Shown here: in pieces, positions 2,070 through 54,926 of the stretch | Numbering within the stretch: position 1 is the first letter of the stretch | How the letters are laid out: each line of letters begins with the position of its first letter | NCBI GenBank assembly: GCA_938029215.1 | Contig: CALHFG010000018.1 | Span: 49,444-113,443 of the forward strand | From: an uncultured Acidimicrobiales bacterium | GTDB lineage: Bacteria; Actinomycetota; Acidimicrobiia; Acidimicrobiales; SZUA-35 | Reading direction: 5' to 3' | Length of the DNA: 64,000 nt | Made by a program: the position numbers and the translations under genes | The notes under the pieces: model-generated | Databases searched by the model: none | What the model was told of the DNA's origin: nothing | The model's input: only the letters and a program-made list of their open reading frames with translations

Positions 2070-2624
2070 CTATGGCCTTTGGGTCAGCCGGTCCGGTAAC
2101 GACGCAATCGCACGCTTGTAGGCCGCCGTCTTGCCGCTGGTCGACGCGATCACCATGCCACCCTCGATCGCAGCAACCGCGTCCATCGCCGCCACCTCGG
2201 CCTGTGCCTTGGTGAGGCCCGCGTCCCGGGCAATGTGGGTTAACGCTTCGGCCCACGAATCCAGACAACTTCCGGCCGTGGACCGGTTTTCTTCGTCAGA
2301 AACGCTCAGTGCCACTACCAAGCACGACTGAGTACCGCCCTTGTAGTAGTCATCAAGACCCTTGGCCACCTGGCGGGCTCGCTCGACGGGCGGGCCGTCG
2401 GCGAACGCCGGAGCTAGCGCCACGCGGTAACGTTCGATGGCCCGCTCGACAATCGCCTCAACCATCTGGTCCTTTCCCCCCGGGAAACGGTGATAGAGGC
2501 TGGCCCTGCCGAGACCAGTTGCCTTCGACAAGAGGTTGATGCTCGCTCCTGCGTACCCGTAACGGCTGAACACTTCGGCGACTGCATCGGCGAGGCTTAC
2601 GTCATCGATTGTGCGGGGAGGCAT
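2070..2624 (-). CDS. TetR family transcriptional regulator
   Basis: 184 aa. N-terminal HTH LLSKATGLGRASLYHRFPGGKDQM is typical of TetR_N. A palindromic operator candidate lies 11 nt upstream. Confidence 0.9.
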   Translation of the reverse strand: MPPRTIDDVSLADAVAEVFSRYGYAGASINLLSKATGLGRASLYHRFPGGKDQMVEAIVERAIERYRVALAPAFADGPPVERARQVAKGLDDYYKGGTQSCLVVALSVSDEENRSTAGSCLDSWAEALTHIARDAGLTKAQAEVAAMDAVAAIEGGMVIASTSGKTAAYKRAIASLPDRLTQRP

Positions 2625-2634
2625 AGAAATGAAC

Positions 2635-2655
2635 TGTACCGAACGTTCGATTACA
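2635..2655. promoter_or_regulatory. candidate TetR operator: 21-bp near-palindrome TGTACCGAACGTTCGATTACA (perfect core CGAACGTTCG at 2640-2649)
   Basis: Read directly. The 10-bp core is perfectly self-complementary with TGTA/TACA outer arms. It sits 11 nt upstream of the TetR start codon (2624). Confidence 0.45.
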
Positions 2656-2701
2656 GACCGATTTCGGCAGTGCGGACTGTGTCTCGGCTATCTGGTCTCG
2701 G

Positions 2702-3736
2702 CTATATGCGTCTCGGCTCTCTGTCCTCGAGCGTGAAGATGGTATTACGAACCTCGGCTATACAGCTGTCGATCTCGGCGACGGCCGCTGCGCCTGCATC
2801 CTGCAGCCGTTTTGGGTCTGATCCGGCCGCCTGCAGTCGAATGCCGGCAGCGAACAGCCGTTGGATCACACTGTCTTGAAGTCGCCGAGCAATCCGCTCC
2901 CGCTCTTGAGCGAGACCAAGCTGTGCCTCGCGTGCGTTGCGACGCTCCACCTCTCGTGCCATTTCGTGTTGCTGTCTCTTTCGCTCAGCGGTTCGACGGG
3001 CCAGCGCGATCAACGACCCCCGTCCGAACGCGATCCCGTCGACCCGCTCCACAAGAACCTCTACCTCCGTTCGAGGGACTCCCGGCCCATGGTGAATGGC
3101 GTCGTAGGTTACGACGGCCCGCTCCCCGCTGCGGAGTAGTTCGAGCATCTCCAACAACGGCACCGCGCCTGTCGGCTGTGAGACGTCAAGAAAGGACAGT
3201 CCCGAGGACAACTCGACCGAAGGGCGACCGATCTGTTCCTGAGCGGCACGGTTCGTATACCAAAGTCCGAACGTCTCGGAGTCGAACATGAATACCGCCT
3301 CTGCGACCGAGTCGAGCGCTAGACGAATGGAGCGGTCATCGATCTCCTTTGCCCTCCGTAGAGAGATGTCTCGAACAATGGCAAGCACCGAGAACTCCTT
3401 GCCCGTTCCGACCGGACTCAGACTGATTTCGGCTAGGAACTCAGAGCCATCGCTTCGAAGCGCAACCAGGTCGCCCGGTCGTTCGCCCATGAACGCCGCA
3501 TGCGGCTGGTCCTTGTATCGGTCGTGGTGGCCCTGATGGACAGAGCGAAGCCGCTCCGGAACAAGTGCATCCATCGTTACGTCTGCAAACGACTTCGCCG
3601 AGTAGCCGAAAAGCGACGCTGCCGCGGGGTTGGCCCAGTTGATCTTGCCTTCAGTGCCGAAGACGATCATTGCATCGGGAGCCTCAAGAAGATGGGGCAG
3701 CGTTGCGGTCGTCATGGCGTCGGAGCCGGTGAACAA
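2702..3736 (-). CDS. PAS-PAS-DHp protein: truncated HisKA_3 sensor-kinase paralogue without an ATPase (CA) domain and with Gln in place of the phospho-acceptor His
   Basis: 344 aa. PAS1 (DAMIVFG...LVPERLRSVHQGHHDRY...RSDGSEF) and PAS2 are paralogous to those of the 7910-9676 kinase. The H-box reads ERERIARRLQDSVIQRLF, with the Gln287 codon caa at 2876-2878, where the kinase has RLAEDLHDLIIQRLF. The ORF stops just after DHp helix 2, and only 77 nt remain before the next gene. Confidence 0.8.
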   Translation of the reverse strand: MFTGSDAMTTATLPHLLEAPDAMIVFGTEGKINWANPAAASLFGYSAKSFADVTMDALVPERLRSVHQGHHDRYKDQPHAAFMGERPGDLVALRSDGSEFLAEISLSPVGTGKEFSVLAIVRDISLRRAKEIDDRSIRLALDSVAEAVFMFDSETFGLWYTNRAAQEQIGRPSVELSSGLSFLDVSQPTGAVPLLEMLELLRSGERAVVTYDAIHHGPGVPRTEVEVLVERVDGIAFGRGSLIALARRTAERKRQQHEMAREVERRNAREAQLGLAQERERIARRLQDSVIQRLFAAGIRLQAAGSDPKRLQDAGAAAVAEIDSCIAEVRNTIFTLEDREPRRI

Positions 3737-3742
3737 CGTTGA

Positions 3743-4162
3743 TTAGAGGGGTCGGCCCGGGAGGACCCGACCGGTAATCGCGTCGGTCTCGATCCGAAGA
3801 AATCGGCTCTTCACGCCCGCGGCCCAGGGCTCTACCTCGAGGTCATCGGCGAACATAAGATCGTCCAGACGCTCGAGTTCGTGGGCCTGTCCTCTCACCA
3901 CGATGCTCCAACCAAACTTGCGGCGTTCGTCCACGGCGTCGACTTCGAACGCAACGTTGGGGTTAAGCACCGCGGCAGCGAGCTTCAACCCTGGTGCGGT
4001 CTGCAAGTAGATCTCCCGTTCCCACACCTTGTAGTTGACGGGAAAGATGTCCGGTGTGTTGTTGATCACGACCGCTAGGCGCCCTACCGACTTCGCTGGC
4101 AGTAGCTCCCAGCACTCCTCTTCGGTCAGAGGCTCCAGTGATGACTTGAGGAATTCGCTCAT
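3743..4162 (-). CDS. pyridoxamine 5'-phosphate oxidase (PPOX)-like split-barrel flavoprotein family protein
   Basis: 139 aa. LTEEECWELL...GRLAVV...PDIFPVNY...AFEVD...GWSVVVRG pattern typical of the Pyridox_ox_2 family. It lies 6 nt upstream of the truncated sensor on the same strand. Confidence 0.8.
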   Translation of the reverse strand: MSEFLKSSLEPLTEEECWELLPAKSVGRLAVVINNTPDIFPVNYKVWEREIYLQTAPGLKLAAAVLNPNVAFEVDAVDERRKFGWSIVVRGQAHELERLDDLMFADDLEVEPWAAGVKSRFLRIETDAITGRVLPGRPL

Positions 4163-4198: not shown

Positions 4199-4212
4199 GG
4201 GCATTTGGTCCT
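4199..4212. promoter_or_regulatory. weak DosR-box-like site GGGCA-TTTG-GTCCT (7/10 half-site matches to GGGAC-N4-GTCCC)
   Basis: Read directly in the divergent promoter between the PPOX gene (start 4162) and the USP gene (start 4303). Confidence 0.25.
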
Positions 4213-4226
4213 GGCGTCGCGATGGA

Positions 4227-4240
4227 GAGACAAAGGTCCC
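4227..4240. promoter_or_regulatory. DosR-box-like palindrome GAGAC-AAAG-GTCCC (9/10 half-site matches)
   Basis: Read directly. It is centred about 70 nt from both divergent start codons (4162 and 4303). Confidence 0.45.
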
Positions 4241-7751: not shown

Positions 7752-7826
7752 GCTGAACTCCTTTGGTTCGCGGGAGAGGCTCTTTCTCCCTAGATCCATC
7801 CTGTTCTGTTCGTTTGTCTCGTTCTA

Positions 7827-7840
7827 GGGTCCTTAGTCCT
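7827..7840. promoter_or_regulatory. DosR-box-like site GGGTC-CTTA-GTCCT (8/10 half-site matches)
   Basis: Read directly in the divergent promoter between the PPOX gene (start 7751) and the sensor kinase (start 7910). Confidence 0.35.
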
Positions 7841-7909
7841 CTGAGCTCGCTGTGCAGTCAAAGAGCTAGCATGTGGCCCTGAACTTGGCGACCGTGCGGA
7901 GGACTGACC

Positions 7910-9676
7910 GTGGACAACTTTGACGGCACCGAGACCGAACGTGCCGCATGGGCCATGGTGGAAAGCTCCCCCGATGGCATGCTCCTCGCCGATGAACAGG
8001 GTCAGATTCTGCTCGTCAACACCCAAGTTGAAGAACTCTTTGGGTACACACGCGCCGAGCTGCTGGGGCTGAGCATCGAGGTGTTGGTGCCGGAACGGCT
8101 ACGGAAAGTGCATTCCGCGCACCGAACCCGATACCGAGTCGACCCGAAGCCTCGCTCGATGGGCGGAGACCTCGACCTTCGGGCACTCCGCAAAGACGGA
8201 ACAGAGTTCCCGGTCGAAGTGTCACTCAGTCCGCTCCAGACCGGAAGCGAGACCCGTGTGATCGCCACGATTCGTGACGTCACGTTGCGGTATGAAGCCG
8301 AGGCCGAGTCGCACGCCGTGCTTCACACCATGAACGCCACTCGCGATGGCGTATTCATGTTCGACCCCGACACTTTGGCCTTTACCTATGTAAACGAAGG
8401 TGCCGTGCGGCAACTCGGCTACACGAGGGACGAACTCCTCGGCATGACCCCACTTCACATCAAACCGATGTTCGATGAAGGGTCGTTTCGAGAGCTGTTG
8501 CGACCCCTTGTTTCCGACGAAGTGAAATCTCATGTCTTTACGACAAGTCATCGACGCAAAAGCGGTGAAGACGTCCCTGTCGAGATCATCCTCGAATACC
8601 CAGAGGCAGTAGATGCGGGTCGCAGTCGCCGGCTGGTGGCCATCGTCCGAGACATCTCAGAGCGAGTCCAGGCCGATCTGGCGTTGGCCACGAGCGAGGA
8701 AGCATTCCGCACCGCGTTTGACTCCGCCCCGGTCGGCATGGCGCTGGTGGACTTCAATGATCCGGTACGACGCCCGATCACCCGGGTGAATCAAGCTCTT
8801 TGTGAGTACTTGGGTTATGAAGCCGACCAGCTTTTGACGATGGGGTTCGCAGAACTCACCCATCCCGATGATGCCGAAGTCAGCGATCAACAAGCGCTTC
8901 GAGCCGTCGATGGAAAAGCGTCCCAGTTTGCGGTAGAGAAGCGATACCTGCACGCCGATGGACATGCCGTTTGGGCGTGGGTCCACTCGGCGGTGCTCGA
9001 TAACGGCATCGACTCCCCTACCAGCGTGCTGGTACACGTTGCGGACATGACCGAAGCACGCCGAGCTCAGCAGGATGAGGCTCGTCTTCGGATCCTGGAG
9101 GACCGAGAGCGGCTCGCTGAAGACCTCCATGATCTCATCATCCAACGACTGTTTGCAGCAGGAATGGGTCTGCAGTCGCTGCAGACCCGCGTTACCGACC
9201 CGATCACCGCCGACCGTCTGGCCCGTACCGTCGACGAGTTGGACCACACCATCGCGGATCTCCGGAACGCCATTTTCCGCCTGCACTCTCCGTTTGAATC
9301 AAGCGTGCGGCACGACATCGAAGAGGCGGTCCACAATGCCAATCGCTCACTTGGGTTCACGCCTCAGCTCACCTTTGAAGGCGACCCCAGTCAGATCGCA
9401 GCTCCGGTAGCCGAACAACTGATGCCAGTTCTGTCAGAGGCACTCATGAATATTGCCAAACATGCTGATGCAACCGCCGCCGCGGTATCGCTCGCAATCG
9501 ACGAGCGGGTGGAGCTCACAATCCGCGACAACGGCTGCGGGTTCGTCGAGCAGCGTACGGGAGGTCATGGGATCAATAACATGCGCTCCCGAGCCGAGCG
9601 ACTTGGTGGCACTGTCGCCCTCGAGTCACCCGCCGACGGCGGCACACAGTTGGTGTGGACCGCCGTCAACCGCTAG
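7910..9676 (+). CDS. cytoplasmic sensor histidine kinase: PAS(FixL-like)-PAS-PAS-HisKA_3-HATPase_c
   Basis: 588 aa. GTG start lies 8 nt after GGAGGA. No TM segment. H-box is RLAEDLHDLIIQRLF (His407 codon 9128-9130). N-box is EALMNIAKHA, with G-boxes DNGCGF and GHGINNM. PAS1 aligns without gaps to the B. japonicum FixL haem-PAS as I recall it, and His68 (8111-8113) falls on the proximal His. Confidence 0.9.
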   Translation: MDNFDGTETERAAWAMVESSPDGMLLADEQGQILLVNTQVEELFGYTRAELLGLSIEVLVPERLRKVHSAHRTRYRVDPKPRSMGGDLDLRALRKDGTEFPVEVSLSPLQTGSETRVIATIRDVTLRYEAEAESHAVLHTMNATRDGVFMFDPDTLAFTYVNEGAVRQLGYTRDELLGMTPLHIKPMFDEGSFRELLRPLVSDEVKSHVFTTSHRRKSGEDVPVEIILEYPEAVDAGRSRRLVAIVRDISERVQADLALATSEEAFRTAFDSAPVGMALVDFNDPVRRPITRVNQALCEYLGYEADQLLTMGFAELTHPDDAEVSDQQALRAVDGKASQFAVEKRYLHADGHAVWAWVHSAVLDNGIDSPTSVLVHVADMTEARRAQQDEARLRILEDRERLAEDLHDLIIQRLFAAGMGLQSLQTRVTDPITADRLARTVDELDHTIADLRNAIFRLHSPFESSVRHDIEEAVHNANRSLGFTPQLTFEGDPSQIAAPVAEQLMPVLSEALMNIAKHADATAAAVSLAIDERVELTIRDNGCGFVEQRTGGHGINNMRSRAERLGGTVALESPADGGTQLVWTAVNR

Positions 9677-10191: not shown

Positions 10192-10205
10192 GGGCCCAAG
10201 GTCCC
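10192..10205. promoter_or_regulatory. DosR-box-like palindrome GGGCC-CAAG-GTCCC (9/10 half-site matches)
   Basis: Read directly in the divergent promoter between the USP gene (start 10132) and the HPF-like gene (start 10333). Confidence 0.45.
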
Positions 10206-10332: not shown

Positions 10333-11754
10333 ATGCCGGATGGAAGAGTTCACCGCATCGACCCCGACACCGAGTCGGTATACATCATTCGCCGAGGTCG
10401 CACCTACCGAGCACCCCTGAACGAAGTCGAGGCTGCAGCCCGGGTTCCGAGCGCTCGCGTGCAGTTCGGTCTGCGCAGGCGCAACGGCGAAGAAAGCGCC
10501 GAAGGCGTGACCTTGCGTCGAGGCACGCGCACCAACAAGCGTCACCGCCGGTTCGGCGACCTCACCGGAGCCGCCCGTCCCGGCGCCAAGACTCGAACCC
10601 GGACCCAGCAAGACTTCGGAATCGATGTCACGACACAGCCGCGCCGAGTCGCGGAGGCATGGGTGAACGCTATGAATACCGCGGACTTCGACGGCGCAGC
10701 CTCGCTGTACTTGCCCGAGGCCAAAGTTCACACCGATGCCGGCACCATTTCTGGACGCCGCAAGGTTCGGGCCGCCCTCGAAGACTGTGGATGGGAAGTT
10801 GGGCAATCTGATGTCACGTTCCACGTCGACGATCGCTTCGTGGACATCCATCACGGCGGTTCGGCCCACGAGCTGGATTCTTCGCTCATGATCAGCAAAG
10901 GTGCGATCGTTGAGCACTGGTTCGGACCCAGCTATGAAAGCGGTGCCGAGAAAGAGGACGATCAGCCTGTCATCGAGGTTGTAAACCGAACCGGTGTCAG
11001 CGCCGTAGCGGTCACGAATGCCGAGGAACGAATGTCGACGGTGATCGCCGGCATTCCGGAGAAGGTTTTGTCGGCGCGCATCAAATTGGCACTCGCTCCG
11101 AAACCACGGTCCATGCTTGCCGCCCACGTCGAAACAACGTTCGAACTGGAGAACGGCGGTGTCATTCGCGTCCACGCCGGCGCAACAACGCTTTCCGAGG
11201 CGATCGACCAGGCGCTCTCAAAGTTCGCCGCAAAGCTGGAACGCACACGCGATCGAGATCGACACAACCCGACGGGCGTAGCTCCGAACCCCAACCAATG
11301 GCGTCACGCCAACCGGCCAAGCGACGGGCTTCCCTATTTCGATCGACCTCCGGAAGAACGGGAAATCGTTCGCCACAAGACAGTCGCGGCAGCGCAGATG
11401 ACGATCGAGGAGGCCGCATGGGACGCCGATCTCATGGCGTTTGACTTCTTCCTCTTCGAGGAGATCTCCACCGGTCATGATTGCCTCCTCGAACGCAATG
11501 ACGACGCATACGTCGTGTACGGCATGGGACTGGGAGTCCAGACCATCCCCAGCGCGATGGGAGATCTCAACACCAGCGATGCGACCGTTCCCACAGAACG
11601 GCTGAGTGCTGCGATCGAGATACTCCATGGTTCCGGAGCGCCGTACCACTTCTTCATTAACGAAGCGACCGGCAGAGGGAACGTGATCTATCGACGACTA
11701 GACGGCCACTACGGCTTGATCACGCCTCGGGTCAGCGTCACTCGTACCGACTGA
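10333..11754 (+). CDS. ribosome hibernation factor of the Rv0079/RafH type (HPF N-domain plus two tandem HPF C-terminal-like domains), with an extra ~200-aa N-terminal region (small beta-barrel, basic linker, NTF2/SnoaL-like domain)
   Basis: 473 aa. ATG is preceded by GAAGGAGAG. Residues 212-306 (VIEVVNRTG...ARIKLAL...VETTFEL...IRVHAGATTLSEAIDQALSKFAAKLER) fit the S30AE/YfiA fold pattern. Residues 343-396 (EIVRHKTV..MTIEEAAWDADLMAFDFFLFEEISTGHDCLLER) and 420-466 (PYHFFINEATGRGNVIYRRLDGHYGLITP) are two HPF-CTD-like repeats. Residues 103-197 (AEAWVNAMNTADFDGAASLY...GAIVEHWF) look NTF2/SnoaL-like. Confidence 0.85.
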   Translation: MPDGRVHRIDPDTESVYIIRRGRTYRAPLNEVEAAARVPSARVQFGLRRRNGEESAEGVTLRRGTRTNKRHRRFGDLTGAARPGAKTRTRTQQDFGIDVTTQPRRVAEAWVNAMNTADFDGAASLYLPEAKVHTDAGTISGRRKVRAALEDCGWEVGQSDVTFHVDDRFVDIHHGGSAHELDSSLMISKGAIVEHWFGPSYESGAEKEDDQPVIEVVNRTGVSAVAVTNAEERMSTVIAGIPEKVLSARIKLALAPKPRSMLAAHVETTFELENGGVIRVHAGATTLSEAIDQALSKFAAKLERTRDRDRHNPTGVAPNPNQWRHANRPSDGLPYFDRPPEEREIVRHKTVAAAQMTIEEAAWDADLMAFDFFLFEEISTGHDCLLERNDDAYVVYGMGLGVQTIPSAMGDLNTSDATVPTERLSAAIEILHGSGAPYHFFINEATGRGNVIYRRLDGHYGLITPRVSVTRTD

Positions 11755-11781: not shown

Positions 11782-12504
11782 TCACTCGTACCGTTTGCGA
11801 GCCCGTTCATCGAGACGGGCCGCAAATGCGGCGGCCTCGGTTCGGCGGGTCATCCCCAGCTTCGCCAGGAGATTCGACACGTAATTCTTGACCGTCTTTT
11901 CGGCAAGGAACATCTCATCAGCGATCTGACGGTTAGACCTTCCCTCACCGATGAGGTCGAAGATCCGGTGTTCTTGCGGGGTCAACGTGGAGACCAGGCC
12001 TTCTTCGCTGTCCTTGAGCCGTCCCATCGCCATCCGAACCGTGGCCGCATCGAGCAATGCAGCGCCCGAAGAGACTTTTCTGATCGACTCGACCAAATCA
12101 TTGCTCCGAATTTGCTTCAGCACATATCCAGCGGCCCCCGCGAACGAGGCATCGACTATGGCGTGGTCATCTGCAAACGACGTGAGAATCAAGCAGGCGA
12201 TCTCGGGAAACTGTGAGCGAATATCGCGGCAGACCTCGATCCCGTTGCCATCTTCGAGTCGCACATCGAGGACTGCGACATCGGGCTGGCACCGCTCGAC
12301 CTCGCGCAATGCCTCGGTGGCTCCGGCTGCCTCGCCAACAACGACGATGTCGGGTTCGGCCTCGAGGAGGTCGGCAACTCCGCGGCGAACAATCTCGTGG
12401 TCGTCGAGAAGAAAGACCCGGATCGAGTCGGTCGAGCTAGTGGGTGTCACGTCGTCTGCGCTCATCATCTTTTCCATTGTCTCGACAACTGCCATAGCTG
12501 CCAT
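11782..12504 (-). CDS. dosR: DevR/DosR-like NarL/LuxR-family response regulator
   Basis: Receiver domain plus LuxR HTH. Long blocks nearly identical to M. tuberculosis DevR as I remember it: [13 protein letters not shown] vs [34 protein letters not shown] vs [27 protein letters not shown], and [25 protein letters not shown] vs [25 protein letters not shown]. The start is uncertain: ATG 12504 is chosen, with alternatives at 12495, 12477, 12468, 12465 or 12567. Confidence 0.9.
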   Translation of the reverse strand: [240 protein letters not shown]

Positions 12505-12531: not shown

Positions 12532-12545
12532 GGGACCAACGTCCC
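12532..12545. promoter_or_regulatory. perfect DosR-box-type palindrome GGGAC-CAAC-GTCCC (10/10 half-site matches)
   Basis: Read directly. It overlaps the stop codon of the upstream tandem-USP gene (12545-12547) and is centred about 34 nt upstream of the chosen dosR-like ATG (12504). Confidence 0.55.
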
Positions 12546-52376: not shown

Positions 52377-54926
52377 GTGGCCTCCGACAGTTTGAGTCTT
52401 CTCGGTGAAGAACTCCGCCGATTGGCGTCGGTACCGGTCCTGTTGGTGGCCACCGACTACGACGGGACGCTAGCTCCGCTCGTCGACAACCCTTCCGACG
52501 CGGTAGCCAACACCGAATCGATCGCAGCGCTCCGGGCGCTCGGCCGAGCCGACGATTCCTACGCTGCTCTCATCTCGGGCCGGAGTCTCGAAGATCTTCG
52601 CACCGTTGCCCAAATGGACGATTCAATTCGGATGGTCGGCAGCCACGGAAGCGAGTTCGACGTCGGATTTGCCAGCTTGCTCGACCAGCAATCGTCAGAT
52701 CTGCGGAGCCAGCTGCTGGCGGCCTGTCATCAAATCGCAGCCGAAACAACGGGTCGTGTCGAAGAAAAGCCAGCCGGTTTGGCCTTCCACACACGTGGTT
52801 CAGACCCAACACAAAGCGCAGCCGCGCTCGATGCAATCACCGCCGGTCCCGCAACCTGGGACGGCGTCTTTCGCCGCGACGGTCACGACGTGGTCGAGCT
52901 CACTGTCACATCGACGCACAAGGGCGACGCTCTGGAACGAATCCGCGGTGAGGTCGGAGCAACCGCCGTCCTGTTCCTGGGCGATGACACAACCGACGAG
53001 GACGCCTTCCTCACCCTGCGCGGCCCGGACGTTGGCATTCGAGTGGGCGACGGCGAAACCGCTGCGGAATATCGGGTCGACTCACCCGACACGGTGGCAA
53101 GAATTCTGGCCCTGCTGTCGGAGCTCCGATCCGACTGGCTCACGGGTTCTGGGCTGCAACCAATCGAAGATCATTCGATTCTTTCGGACCAGCGAACCGC
53201 AGCAGTTCTCGACCAGAACGGCCGAATCGTCTGGATGTGCGTTCCCAGGATCGACTCGGGAGCGATCTTCGCTGAACTACTCGGCGGCGCGTCGGGCGGC
53301 AGCTTCGCCATCTGCCCTGCCGATGAGTCCCCGGCTACCGGTCAGCAATACCGCGCCGGTTCGATGATTCTCGAAACTCGATTCGACGACATCACGATCA
53401 CTGACTACATGGACGTGTCGGGCAAACGCACCGAAGAGTTCGCAGGCCAAAGCGACTTGATTCGAGTGGTCGAAGGAACCGGCGAAGCCGTCATCACATT
53501 CTCACCTCGACTCGACTTTGGCCGCATTCCCACGTCGTTGGAAGCCACCGATCAGGGCGTACGTATCCGGGGCTCGGTCGAGCCACTCAGCCTTCGCTGC
53601 AGCGGCGAAGGCTGGGCCGGTGTCGAGTGGTCCATCGTCGATGCGGGCCAGCACCAAACTGCGGTCGCAACGATCGACCTCATGCGGGGACCAGTCACCC
53701 TCGAACTACGATCCGGAACCGACTCGATGGCACCGCACCCCCGCCCCGAATTTGATCGCCAGTCCGACACGCACCGATTTTGGACTGACCGAAGCAATGG
53801 TCTGGAACGGACGAGCAAGTACCCAGAACTGGTTGAGCGCAGTGCGGTCACCCTCCAGGCACTCCAGCACGGCCCAACCGGCGCCATAGTTGCAGCTGCA
53901 ACCACAAGCCTTCCGGAGTACCTTGGCGGAATTCGGAACTGGGACATGCGGCACAGCCGCATTCGAGATGCCGCCGTGTCTTGCCTGGCCCTGCTGGAGC
54001 TTGGCTCCACCGTCGAAGCCCGCCGCTTTATCGACTGGCTCAAACGGGTCTTCGATGTCCGGCCCGAGACCGACCGCCTCTCCCCCATCTATCTGGTCAC
54101 CGGCCGCCATCTCCCTCCCGAAGCTGAGATCACGGGCCTGCCCGGCTACGGAGGGTCGCGCCCGGTCCGGGTGGGAAATGCGGCAGACATGCAGGTACAG
54201 CTAGATCTCTATGGCTTCCTCCTTCAGGTGGTCAACGCGATGAAGAACCGTGCCATGTCGCTGGACATCGATGACTGGCGGCTGGTTGAGAACCTGGTCG
54301 TGTCGGTAGCACACCGATGGACCGAACCAGACCACGGACTCTGGGAGAGCCGGACCCATCCCCGGCACTACGTGCACTCCAAGGTCTACTGCTGGCTAGC
54401 ACTCGACCGTGGCATACGGATCTCCAAGCAGTTCTGCGACCGGGTGCCCAGCACCTGGACCAACCTCCGAGCCGAGATCGCCGCCGACGTTCTCGACCAC
54501 GGCTGGAACGAAAATCTGCAGAGTTTCACCGCTGCCTACGACAGCGACGACCTCGATGTAGGAGCGCTGTCGGTGGGACTCAGCGGACTGCTCCCGCCCG
54601 ATGATCCGCGGTTTGTTGCCACGGTCGAAGCGGTCCGTCGTGAGCTGCTGACCGACGGGACGGTCTACAACTCCCACGCCGACGACGGTCTGCCAGGACG
54701 ACGCCACGGGGTGCACTTCGCCACGTCGTTGCTGATCGATGCGCTGACACTCGTCGGACGCGTCGACGAAGCCACCGCCCTACTCCATCAGCTCGCAAGC
54801 GATGCTGGCAGCACCGGACTCCTCAGCGCCCATATCGATCCCGCCGAGCGACGATCCCTCGGCAACATCCCCTCCGCCGCCGCCCACGCCGGCTTCATCC
54901 TCAACGCAGTGCACCTGAGCCGCTAG
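52377..54926 (+). CDS. fusion protein: trehalose-6-phosphate phosphatase (OtsB, HAD-IIB) plus a glycoside hydrolase family 15 (glucoamylase/trehalase-like) domain
   Basis: 849 aa. HAD motifs LLVATDYDGTLAP, LISGRS and FLGDDTTDEDAF. From about residue 260 the GH15 layout appears: IEDHSILSDQRTAAVLDQNGRIVWMCVPRIDSGAIFAELLG...GLWESR...AAHAGFI. Confidence 0.85.
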   Translation: MASDSLSLLGEELRRLASVPVLLVATDYDGTLAPLVDNPSDAVANTESIAALRALGRADDSYAALISGRSLEDLRTVAQMDDSIRMVGSHGSEFDVGFASLLDQQSSDLRSQLLAACHQIAAETTGRVEEKPAGLAFHTRGSDPTQSAAALDAITAGPATWDGVFRRDGHDVVELTVTSTHKGDALERIRGEVGATAVLFLGDDTTDEDAFLTLRGPDVGIRVGDGETAAEYRVDSPDTVARILALLSELRSDWLTGSGLQPIEDHSILSDQRTAAVLDQNGRIVWMCVPRIDSGAIFAELLGGASGGSFAICPADESPATGQQYRAGSMILETRFDDITITDYMDVSGKRTEEFAGQSDLIRVVEGTGEAVITFSPRLDFGRIPTSLEATDQGVRIRGSVEPLSLRCSGEGWAGVEWSIVDAGQHQTAVATIDLMRGPVTLELRSGTDSMAPHPRPEFDRQSDTHRFWTDRSNGLERTSKYPELVERSAVTLQALQHGPTGAIVAAATTSLPEYLGGIRNWDMRHSRIRDAAVSCLALLELGSTVEARRFIDWLKRVFDVRPETDRLSPIYLVTGRHLPPEAEITGLPGYGGSRPVRVGNAADMQVQLDLYGFLLQVVNAMKNRAMSLDIDDWRLVENLVVSVAHRWTEPDHGLWESRTHPRHYVHSKVYCWLALDRGIRISKQFCDRVPSTWTNLRAEIAADVLDHGWNENLQSFTAAYDSDDLDVGALSVGLSGLLPPDDPRFVATVEAVRRELLTDGTVYNSHADDGLPGRRHGVHFATSLLIDALTLVGRVDEATALLHQLASDAGSTGLLSAHIDPAERRSLGNIPSAAAHAGFILNAVHLSR

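Follow-up and report, generated by a model that had tools for sequence, protein, structure and literature searches.

A conserved family of gas-sensor-like PAS proteins in Acidimicrobiia without phospho-accepting histidine and ATP-binding domain

In Mycobacterium tuberculosis, the haem-GAF sensor kinases DevS/DosS and DosT act together with the response regulator DevR, and the phosphatase activity of DevS prevents aerobic activation of DevR and keeps the regulon switched off in air (PMC12757749). Kinases of the HisKA_3 family such as NarX dephosphorylate their regulators via a DxxxQ motif beside the phospho-accepting histidine, and the phosphatase activity of NarX depends on this motif (PMC3510030). 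In the DesK:DesR phosphatase complex, Asp189 contacts the regulator and Gln193 places the water, while His188 is buried and uninvolved (PMC5231405). Here we describe a gene located at 2702..3736 on the minus strand of a 64,000-nt stretch (the window) of contig CALHFG010000018.1 from an uncultured Acidimicrobiales bacterium. It encodes a PAS1-PAS2-DHp protein, in the following called the sensor, which carries glutamine in the place of the phospho-accepting histidine and lacks the ATP-binding CA domain. Judged from the sequences compared below, the gene belongs to an old, conserved gas-sensor-like family of Acidimicrobiia and is not a decaying fragment. The sensor is most likely a conserved accessory component of a DosR-like two-component pathway that is incapable of kinase action.

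As in the DevS/DosS-DosT-DevR system, the H-box is of the HisKA_3 type RIAR.L[H]D.VIQRLF, a close DevR homologue is encoded in the vicinity, and the surrounding island contains genes for universal stress proteins (USP), PPOX-like proteins and hibernation-promoting factors (HPF) together with GGGAC-N4-GTCCC boxes. In contrast to DevS and DosT, the sensors of this locus are predicted haem-PAS rather than haem-GAF proteins, and with Gln in the place of DevS His395 and no CA domain, kinase activity of the sensor described here should be impossible. We know of no DevS paralogue without CA domain in mycobacteria.

The open reading frame comprises 344 codons if translation starts at TTG 3736, but gene callers and the N-termini of the orthologues place the probable start at ATG 3715, resulting in a protein of 337 residues (P0001, whose numbering is used below) with the stop codon at 2702-2704. 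A Pfam search with the 344-residue form yielded a PAS domain (19-128) and a HisKA_3 domain (PF07730, 278-338, 38.5 bits versus a cut-off of 24), but no match for HATPase_c. PAS2 was overlooked by Pfam, but was predicted as a confident PAS fold (pLDDT >90) by AlphaFold2 (AF2). The AF2 model, calculated for a single chain from 50 homologues with a mean pLDDT of 93.2, shows PAS folds at residues 15-116 (PAS1, 3368..3673, minus strand, as are all features of the gene) and 140-241 (PAS2, 2993..3298), a long helix at 243-296 formed by the signalling helix and DHp helix 1 (2828..2989), a 4-residue loop, and DHp helix 2 at 301-331 (2723..2815). The Pfam score and the modelled hairpin identify the C-terminal part as a HisKA_3-type DHp domain. 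Its hairpin is complete in the model, and the chain terminates 6 residues past helix 2. The H-box in helix 1 reads RIARRLQDSVIQRLF, compared to LAEDLHDLIIQRLF in the neighbouring kinase at 7910-9676. Gln280 (codon CAA, 2876..2878) occupies the place of the phospho-accepting His and is directly followed by the HisKA_3 transmitter-phosphatase motif DxxxQ (Asp281...Gln285, 2861..2875). Pfam, the AF2 model and the H-box thus agree with a preliminary description of the gene, which had read it as PAS-PAS-DHp with a His-to-Gln exchange and no ATPase domain, ending right after DHp helix 2. The spacer of 77 nt (2625..2701) between the sensor stop codon and the TetR gene (2070-2624, minus strand) is too small for a CA domain, and no CA remnant was detected downstream of the stop codon by tblastn with the kinase as query, in line with the earlier statement that no degraded CA domain is hidden there.

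The assignment of PAS1 as a FixL-like domain was likewise borne out. A sequence search of the PDB with PAS1 retrieved haem-PAS proteins only (10jx, DosP, FixL), and these also headed the Foldseek results (10jx, 33% identity, rmsd 2.4; BjFixL, 27% identity, rmsd 2.5). The candidate proximal His60 (His67 in the 344-residue numbering; codon 3536-3538) aligns with the proximal His77 of DosP and is invariant among the 50 homologues. By these alignments PAS1 shows a feature of FixL/DosP-type sensors, a PAS fold with a proximal His on the F-alpha helix, and probably binds haem. Of the PH and GER residues, which had been compared to His214 and Arg220 of FixL, only the Arg of GER is conserved; in the HMMER alignment, whose loop register is uncertain and differs from that of FixL, it lies opposite DosP Met95 and not Arg97. 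His79 of the PH pair is variable, being replaced by V, A or T in orthologues.

To see whether the sensor gene is under selection, we analyzed its relatives. The identical 337-residue protein was present on five contigs from four samples, from which the window copy differs by G150A only. The closest orthologue clusters (P0002, P0003, and P0004) share 57-59% identity with it, all contain RIARRLQDSVIQRLF, and end with ...TIFTLEER at true stop codons within their contigs; stop position, reading frame and Gln are kept. Among the four closest orthologues the dN/dS ratio was 0.10-0.18 (Nei-Gojobori, synonymous sites saturated), indicating purifying selection. The DHp core was the most constrained part, with omega values of 0.06-0.10 and 78-84% identity versus 47-60% for the PAS domains. 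Gln is encoded by CAA in the window and L008 and by CAG in the others, which argues that the residue was maintained despite synonymous turnover. When proteins were clustered at 90% identity, Gln was found at the phospho-site in 21 clusters, all of which stop 45-61 residues later without a CA domain, while all His-bearing relatives examined possess about 180-200 more residues including this domain. The longer Gln-type relatives have the architectures PAS1-PAS2-PAS3-DHp (452-464 aa) or PAS1-PAS2-PAS3-GAF-DHp (592-631 aa). In the source records, the Gln-type proteins originate from metagenome-assembled genomes of Acidimicrobiia/Acidimicrobiales and are named only "PAS domain S-box protein"; there is no dedicated NCBIfam model for them. 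The orthologues with the same truncation and exchange that the preliminary description had recommended looking for thus exist, and at this locus the relatives carry the same or longer Gln-type forms without CA domain, under purifying selection, and no full-length gene with His and CA domain.

In neighbour-joining (NJ) trees based on about 320 shared columns from PAS1, PAS2, and DHp, the Gln-type proteins formed one clade in 200 of 200 bootstraps, and in 199 of 200 when the His/Gln column was omitted. The kinase of the window was placed outside of it in a separate His clade. The view that the sensor is a truncated copy of this kinase thus had to be given up as far as a recent event is meant. 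The short form is nested inside the Gln clade, where the 452-aa and 619-629-aa forms are its sisters, and arose when an ancestor that was already kinase-dead lost PAS3 (and GAF). Since synteny (see below) agrees with this nesting, we regard the protein of the window as a further-trimmed descendant of that ancestor. A full-length kinase with three PAS domains, GAF, HisKA_3 with His and HATPase (P0290, 754 aa) is 41% identical to a 624-aa Gln-type protein over 97% of the length; its domain order is what one would expect for the family ancestor, yet it grouped with the Gln clade in only 2.5% of the NJ bootstraps. A profile search against 1.84 billion representatives yielded mostly multi-PAS proteins, among the additional ones P0127, P0129, P0146, and P0158, and the short form fell into a single 50% cluster, P0002. 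A search for DHp-only proteins gave one match, a 59-aa His-type fragment (P0121). Scanning of contigs with generic PAS peptides returned unrelated PAS proteins only (≤45% identity) and is uninformative with regard to orthologues. Another class of His-to-Gln pseudo-kinases was encountered on L092 (2604-3686, minus strand) and L093 (4936-6018, minus strand), where 361-aa proteins of the type REC-HisKA_3(RIARDLQDTVIQMLF)-HATPase-like have Gln at the phospho-site and DxxxQ, and keep the CA region.

The sequence starting at the phospho-site position of the sensor reads Q-D-S-V-I-Q, the motif being located via an independent, non-circular anchor. No Gln-type sequence examined deviates at Asp(+1) or Gln(+5), whereas Gln(+5) is missing from two true kinases of this set. 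NarX with the exchange H399Q is reported to remain active as a phosphatase, a point on which our reading does not draw. Between the end of the last PAS domain and position 0, the linker of the Gln-type proteins comprises 39, 32 or 25 residues, lengths that are all of the form 7n+4; that of the window sensor, counted from the end of PAS2, has 39 residues. In active kinases of the same class, linkers of 32 residues occurred in 37 and linkers of 39 residues in 7 proteins. Because the linker length stays within 7n+4, the main class of active kinases, transmission of signals from PAS to DHp seems to be preserved in the Gln-type proteins. Linkers fall into two heptad classes overall, with all Gln-type proteins and 44 kinases in the 7n+4 class and 17 kinases in the 7n class. 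The linker of the window kinase, with 28 residues, belongs to the 7n class, so that the two co-resident proteins are in different registers; this might result in opposite signal polarity.

The genomic context points to the DevR-like regulator as partner. The gene immediately upstream of the sensor gene and co-oriented with it (3743..4162, minus strand) encodes a Pyridox_ox_2 (PPOX-like) protein. This arrangement had been recognized before, but the reported distance of 6 nt requires correction: 27 nt separate the PPOX stop codon from ATG 3715. The pair of PPOX and sensor genes is conserved in L005, L007, L094, L098, and L100, and a 139-aa Pyridox_ox_2 gene precedes the P0002-P0004 genes wherever the contig shows that side. 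A paralogous bona fide kinase of 588 aa with three PAS domains, HisKA_3 with His, and HATPase_c is encoded at 7910..9676 (plus strand) and is presumed to be the phosphodonor of the island. The PAS1-PAS2 region of the sensor is 35% identical to that of the kinase, and the alignment resumes over DHp. A NarL/DosR-type regulator, as is usual for HisKA_3 kinases, is encoded nearby at 11782..12504 (minus strand). It has a REC-GerE architecture, and its best PDB match is DevR of M. tuberculosis (3C3W, E 5.6e-68), far ahead of other structures. We presume that this regulator is the target of the sensor.

Several features suggest that the island as a whole is DosR-like. It is abundant in genes for USP, PPOX, and hibernation factors, and GGGAC-N4-GTCCC-type boxes are present in the PPOX|USP and USP|HPF regions and upstream of the regulator gene. 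The divergent PPOX|USP promoter region (4199..4240) harbors the half-palindromic boxes GGGCATTTGGTCCT and GAGACAAAGGTCCC, as the preliminary description had stated for the PPOX promoter. The 20-mer consensus of M. tuberculosis DosR, however, is not enriched (7 matches versus 11 expected), and only the core GGGAC-N4-GTCCC marks the promoters of the island. A perfect box, GGGACCAACGTCCC, upstream of the regulator gene suggests autoregulation. Written as AGGGnCC-n3-GgTCCCT, boxes were found at 4199-4240 (PPOX1|USP), 7820-7845 (PPOX2|kinase), 10192-10205 (USP|HPF), and 12532-12545 (upstream of the regulator gene).

In a second subclade, the regulator gene is located directly upstream of the Gln-type gene (L008, L096, L097), its stop codon overlapping the sensor start in L096 and L097 and being followed by a 33-nt gap in L008. 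The regulators of L008 and L096 share about 85% identity with that of the window. The Gln-type gene of this subclade thus occupies the devS slot of a devR-devS operon. No HATPase-bearing kinase was found within 10 kb in L097. Altogether, Gln-type genes were always found within a DosR-like hypoxia island and are coupled to the regulator or to PPOX, but never to the kinase. In L097 (4185-9246), genes for PPOX, pyruvate:ferredoxin oxidoreductase, and dihydroorotate dehydrogenase lie ahead of the operon, with fragments of PPDK nearby, a gene set that fits an anaerobic-metabolism regulon. With respect to the synteny mentioned above, L098 encodes a 619-aa Gln-type protein in the exact slot of the window sensor (USP-USP | PPOX then sensor | acetyl-CoA hydrolase). 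The rest of the L098 island corresponds gene for gene to that of the window, and in L100 the same slot is occupied by a 452-aa Gln-type form.

Tentatively, and with a confidence not quite reaching even, we favour the reading that the sensor is a gas-gated antagonist of the DosR-like regulator which acts as a phosphatase only or by binding to it. Binding and dephosphorylation or masking of the regulator appear as the most likely activity because the Asp...Gln pair was kept while His and the CA domain were lost. The regulator is the probable partner because DxxxQ is invariant and the sensor takes the kinase slot directly after the regulator in one subclade. In the mechanism that we infer, including haem binding, regulator binding, phosphatase catalysis, and both the ligand and the sign of the response, O2, NO or CO would be sensed by the haem-PAS domain PAS1, and the signal would be transmitted via PAS2 and the 39-residue coiled-coil linker to a presumably homodimeric DHp four-helix bundle. 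This bundle could neither be phosphorylated, with Gln in place of His, nor phosphorylate, having no CA domain, but would retain in its Asp...Gln pair the HisKA_3 tool for docking of the regulator and for positioning of a water molecule on the phospho-aspartate. In one ligand state, the DevR-like regulator (11782-12504) would be bound and its phosphoryl group removed, or at least masked. The net effect would be a gas-gated "off switch" working against the true kinase at 7910-9676. Since DosR-like boxes precede the operon that contains the sensor gene, this gene would be co-induced with the regulon and would thereby provide negative feedback.

A number of observations weigh against an antagonist of this kind. 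Hardly any member of the entire kinase family departs from Asp(+1) and Gln(+5), and retention of DxxxQ could in part reflect structural inertia or a non-catalytic docking of the regulator. Whether a DHp domain is competent as a phosphatase without CA domain is disputed: part of the DesK:DesR phosphatase interface is supplied by the CA domain (PMC5231405), a CA-frameshift variant of the HisKA_3 kinase ChrS was phosphatase-defective and showed enhanced signalling (PMC9491836), and the DHp domain of EnvZ alone had no phosphatase activity in mammalian cells, contrary to an earlier in-vitro report (PMC8971529). In the lineage of the window, moreover, the sensor gene is not adjacent to the regulator gene. 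Finally, the strict coupling of Gln and CA loss is explained equally well by a poison subunit, i.e., a decoy whose DHp domain heterodimerises with the full-length kinase and whose own haem-PAS domain gates the formation of dead heterodimers. In HisKA_3 kinases such as DesK, autophosphorylation takes place in trans, so a partner without both His and CA domain would make the heterodimer completely dead, and the perfect association of the two losses (21 of 21) is what a fully dominant-negative subunit requires. The decoy would also profit from the homology of PAS1-PAS2 to the corresponding domains of the kinase and from DHp helix 1, which between +3 and +11 hardly differs from its counterpart in the neighbouring kinase, and heterodimer control has precedents in RetS-GacS (PMC8498467) and ChrS-HrrS (PMC9491836). 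Yet the Gln clade is old and distinct from the clade of the co-resident kinase, the gene is linked to the regulator or PPOX gene instead of the kinase gene, with L097 showing no kinase within 10 kb, and a pure decoy has no need for an invariant, solvent-facing DxxxQ motif. The distance from LQ to [E/D][I/L]D in the hairpin is 21 residues in all Gln-type proteins versus 22-25 in His-type kinases, the latter values being counted by eye in five examples without systematic tally, and provides a weak argument for separate dimerisation. Hairpin length, clade age and gene linkage weaken the decoy, which we rank second to the regulator-directed antagonist and consider rather unlikely, though worth keeping in mind.

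The operons in which the sensor gene follows the regulator gene would also fit a scaffold or reverse-signalling pseudokinase resembling DivL or the CA-frameshift ChrS, in which DHp reads or recruits the regulator and the PAS domains modulate the true kinase, possibly in a positive manner. In DivL the kinase core senses DivK~P and the PAS domains serve as output (PMC4211667), and ChrS without CA domain raised signalling above the level of the deletion (PMC9491836). However, DivL keeps its CA domain as part of the sensing surface, which the sensor lacks, the preserved PAS-to-DHp heptad register suggests forward signalling, and nothing points to a positive sign; we judge such a role improbable. 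Still less probable is that only the haem-PAS domain matters, as a buffer for O2 or NO or as a titrator of the signal, with DHp as a mere dimerisation handle. Stand-alone sensor-domain inhibitors are known from the sporulation of Bacillus anthracis, and the assignment of PAS1 as haem-PAS is compatible with such a function, but it is the DHp domain, including the residues of the catalytic motif, that is most conserved and most constrained in the family. A deletion remnant on its way to loss, as considered in the preliminary description, would account for the domain content of a truncated kinase and for the odd C-terminal tail of the window copy, which derives from a three-fold tandem repeat. 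The identical gene on five contigs from four samples, the maintenance of frame, stop position and Gln at 57-59% identity, the omega values and the monophyly of the 21 clusters strongly favour a functional module, and leave next to no probability for a remnant. A pseudogene or an assembly artefact was rejected on account of the orthologue and selection data and the occurrence of the identical gene in four samples.

The repeat consists of three tandem copies of the 14-15-nt unit GTCTCGGCTATCTG at 2681-2723, across the sensor stop codon. It encodes the window-specific tail ...DREPRRI, where orthologues end with ...EER, and may have arisen by a small tandem duplication or serve as a direct-repeat binding site in front of the TetR gene.

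Pseudo-histidine kinases (DivL, PsmA), kinases inhibiting kinases (RetS), and sensor phosphatases (BumS) are already known, and the regulator-directed antagonist proposed here shares properties with each of them. BumS of Campylobacter jejuni is a natural cytoplasmic kinase-like sensor without the residues required for autophosphorylation, which acts on its cognate regulator only as a phosphatase, under control of a ligand (PMC11796366, PMC12469816). Its system contains no other sensor, and the regulator receives phosphoryl groups from acetyl phosphate and further metabolic phosphodonors (PMC12469816). At the locus described here, in contrast, the sensor has a true kinase beside it, lacks the CA domain through deletion, and belongs to the HisKA_3 family with a putative haem-PAS input. 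NarX and DesK resemble the sensor in having DxxxQ directly after the phospho-site in DHp helix 1 of a four-helix bundle (PMC3510030, PMC5231405), but they are bifunctional and their CA domain helps to lock the phosphatase state, whereas His and CA are permanently absent here. In the RetS-GacS system, a kinase-like protein modulates a two-component pathway through DHp without need for its own autophosphorylation (PMC8498467, PMC12189002), as we propose for the sensor; RetS, however, is a full hybrid kinase with CA and receiver domains. DivL and PsmA, which lost the His, and the CA-frameshift ChrS, which lost the CA domain, retained regulatory roles (PMC4211667, PMC12963549, PMC9491836). In contrast to the sensor, DivL and PsmA keep a CA-like domain, and the ChrS variant is a laboratory mutant that keeps the His. 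In PsmA the residue at the His position varies, and the phosphatase motif has disappeared (PMC12963549). Having no CA domain by Pfam and by its modelled structure, the sensor is not of the DivL type, in which a replaced His lies within a preserved DHp-CA core. The Gln family unites the two losses, both of them old and fixed, with an intact phosphatase motif. The CheY~P phosphatase CheZ is a dimer of helical hairpins forming a four-helix bundle in which a DxxxQ pair places the hydrolytic water (PMC3510030). A stand-alone DHp domain with DxxxQ would resemble it mechanistically, but this likeness is functional only, as the sequences are unrelated and CheZ has no sensor domains.

Our literature searches yielded no report of a DHp-only family that is natural, ancient and coupled to a sensor and that combines a fixed His-to-Gln exchange with an intact phosphatase motif. 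The disputed question of whether DHp alone can act as a phosphatase has so far rested on engineered fragments with conflicting results, and a natural family that was selected without His and CA, but kept DxxxQ and the PAS-to-DHp linker, offers a clean test. It is conceivable, although we are inclined to doubt it, that in Acidimicrobiia the two activities of a DevS-like bifunctional haem kinase were distributed over paralogues, and that one of the lineages turned into a gas-gated DHp phosphatase standing on its own, a "CheZ built from a kinase". If so, this would be the first natural sensor-coupled DHp-only phosphatase, a lineage maintained over more than 50% sequence divergence and the loss of several domains, and DHp alone, driven by a PAS coiled coil, would suffice for regulated dephosphorylation. 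The family would add a third, kinase-dead component to DosR-type hypoxia signalling, and its arrangement suggests that labour is divided, with one paralogue as kinase and the other as phosphatase or antagonist. Such a division could make oxygen thresholds sharper or shield the regulator against acetyl phosphate and cross-talk. Under the label "PAS domain S-box protein" its members could be mistaken for truncated kinases.

In the surroundings of the sensor gene, an imperfect palindrome, CTGTACCGAACGTTCGATTACAG (2634-2656), with the perfect 10-bp core CGAACGTTCG (2640-2649) is located just upstream of the TetR start and is a plausible candidate for the TetR operator named in the preliminary description. 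The TetR gene is absent at this position in the syntenic loci L098 and L100. The ribosome hibernation factor of the island (10333-11754, plus strand) has 473 aa and contains, besides S30AE and its C-terminal domain, an N-terminal SnoaL_2/DUF4440-like domain; its counterpart in L098 has 356 aa, and this domain is not listed for it. Far from the island, the window encodes an 849-aa fusion protein (52377-54926, plus strand) composed of trehalose-phosphatase, trehalase-like N-terminal, and GH15 domains.

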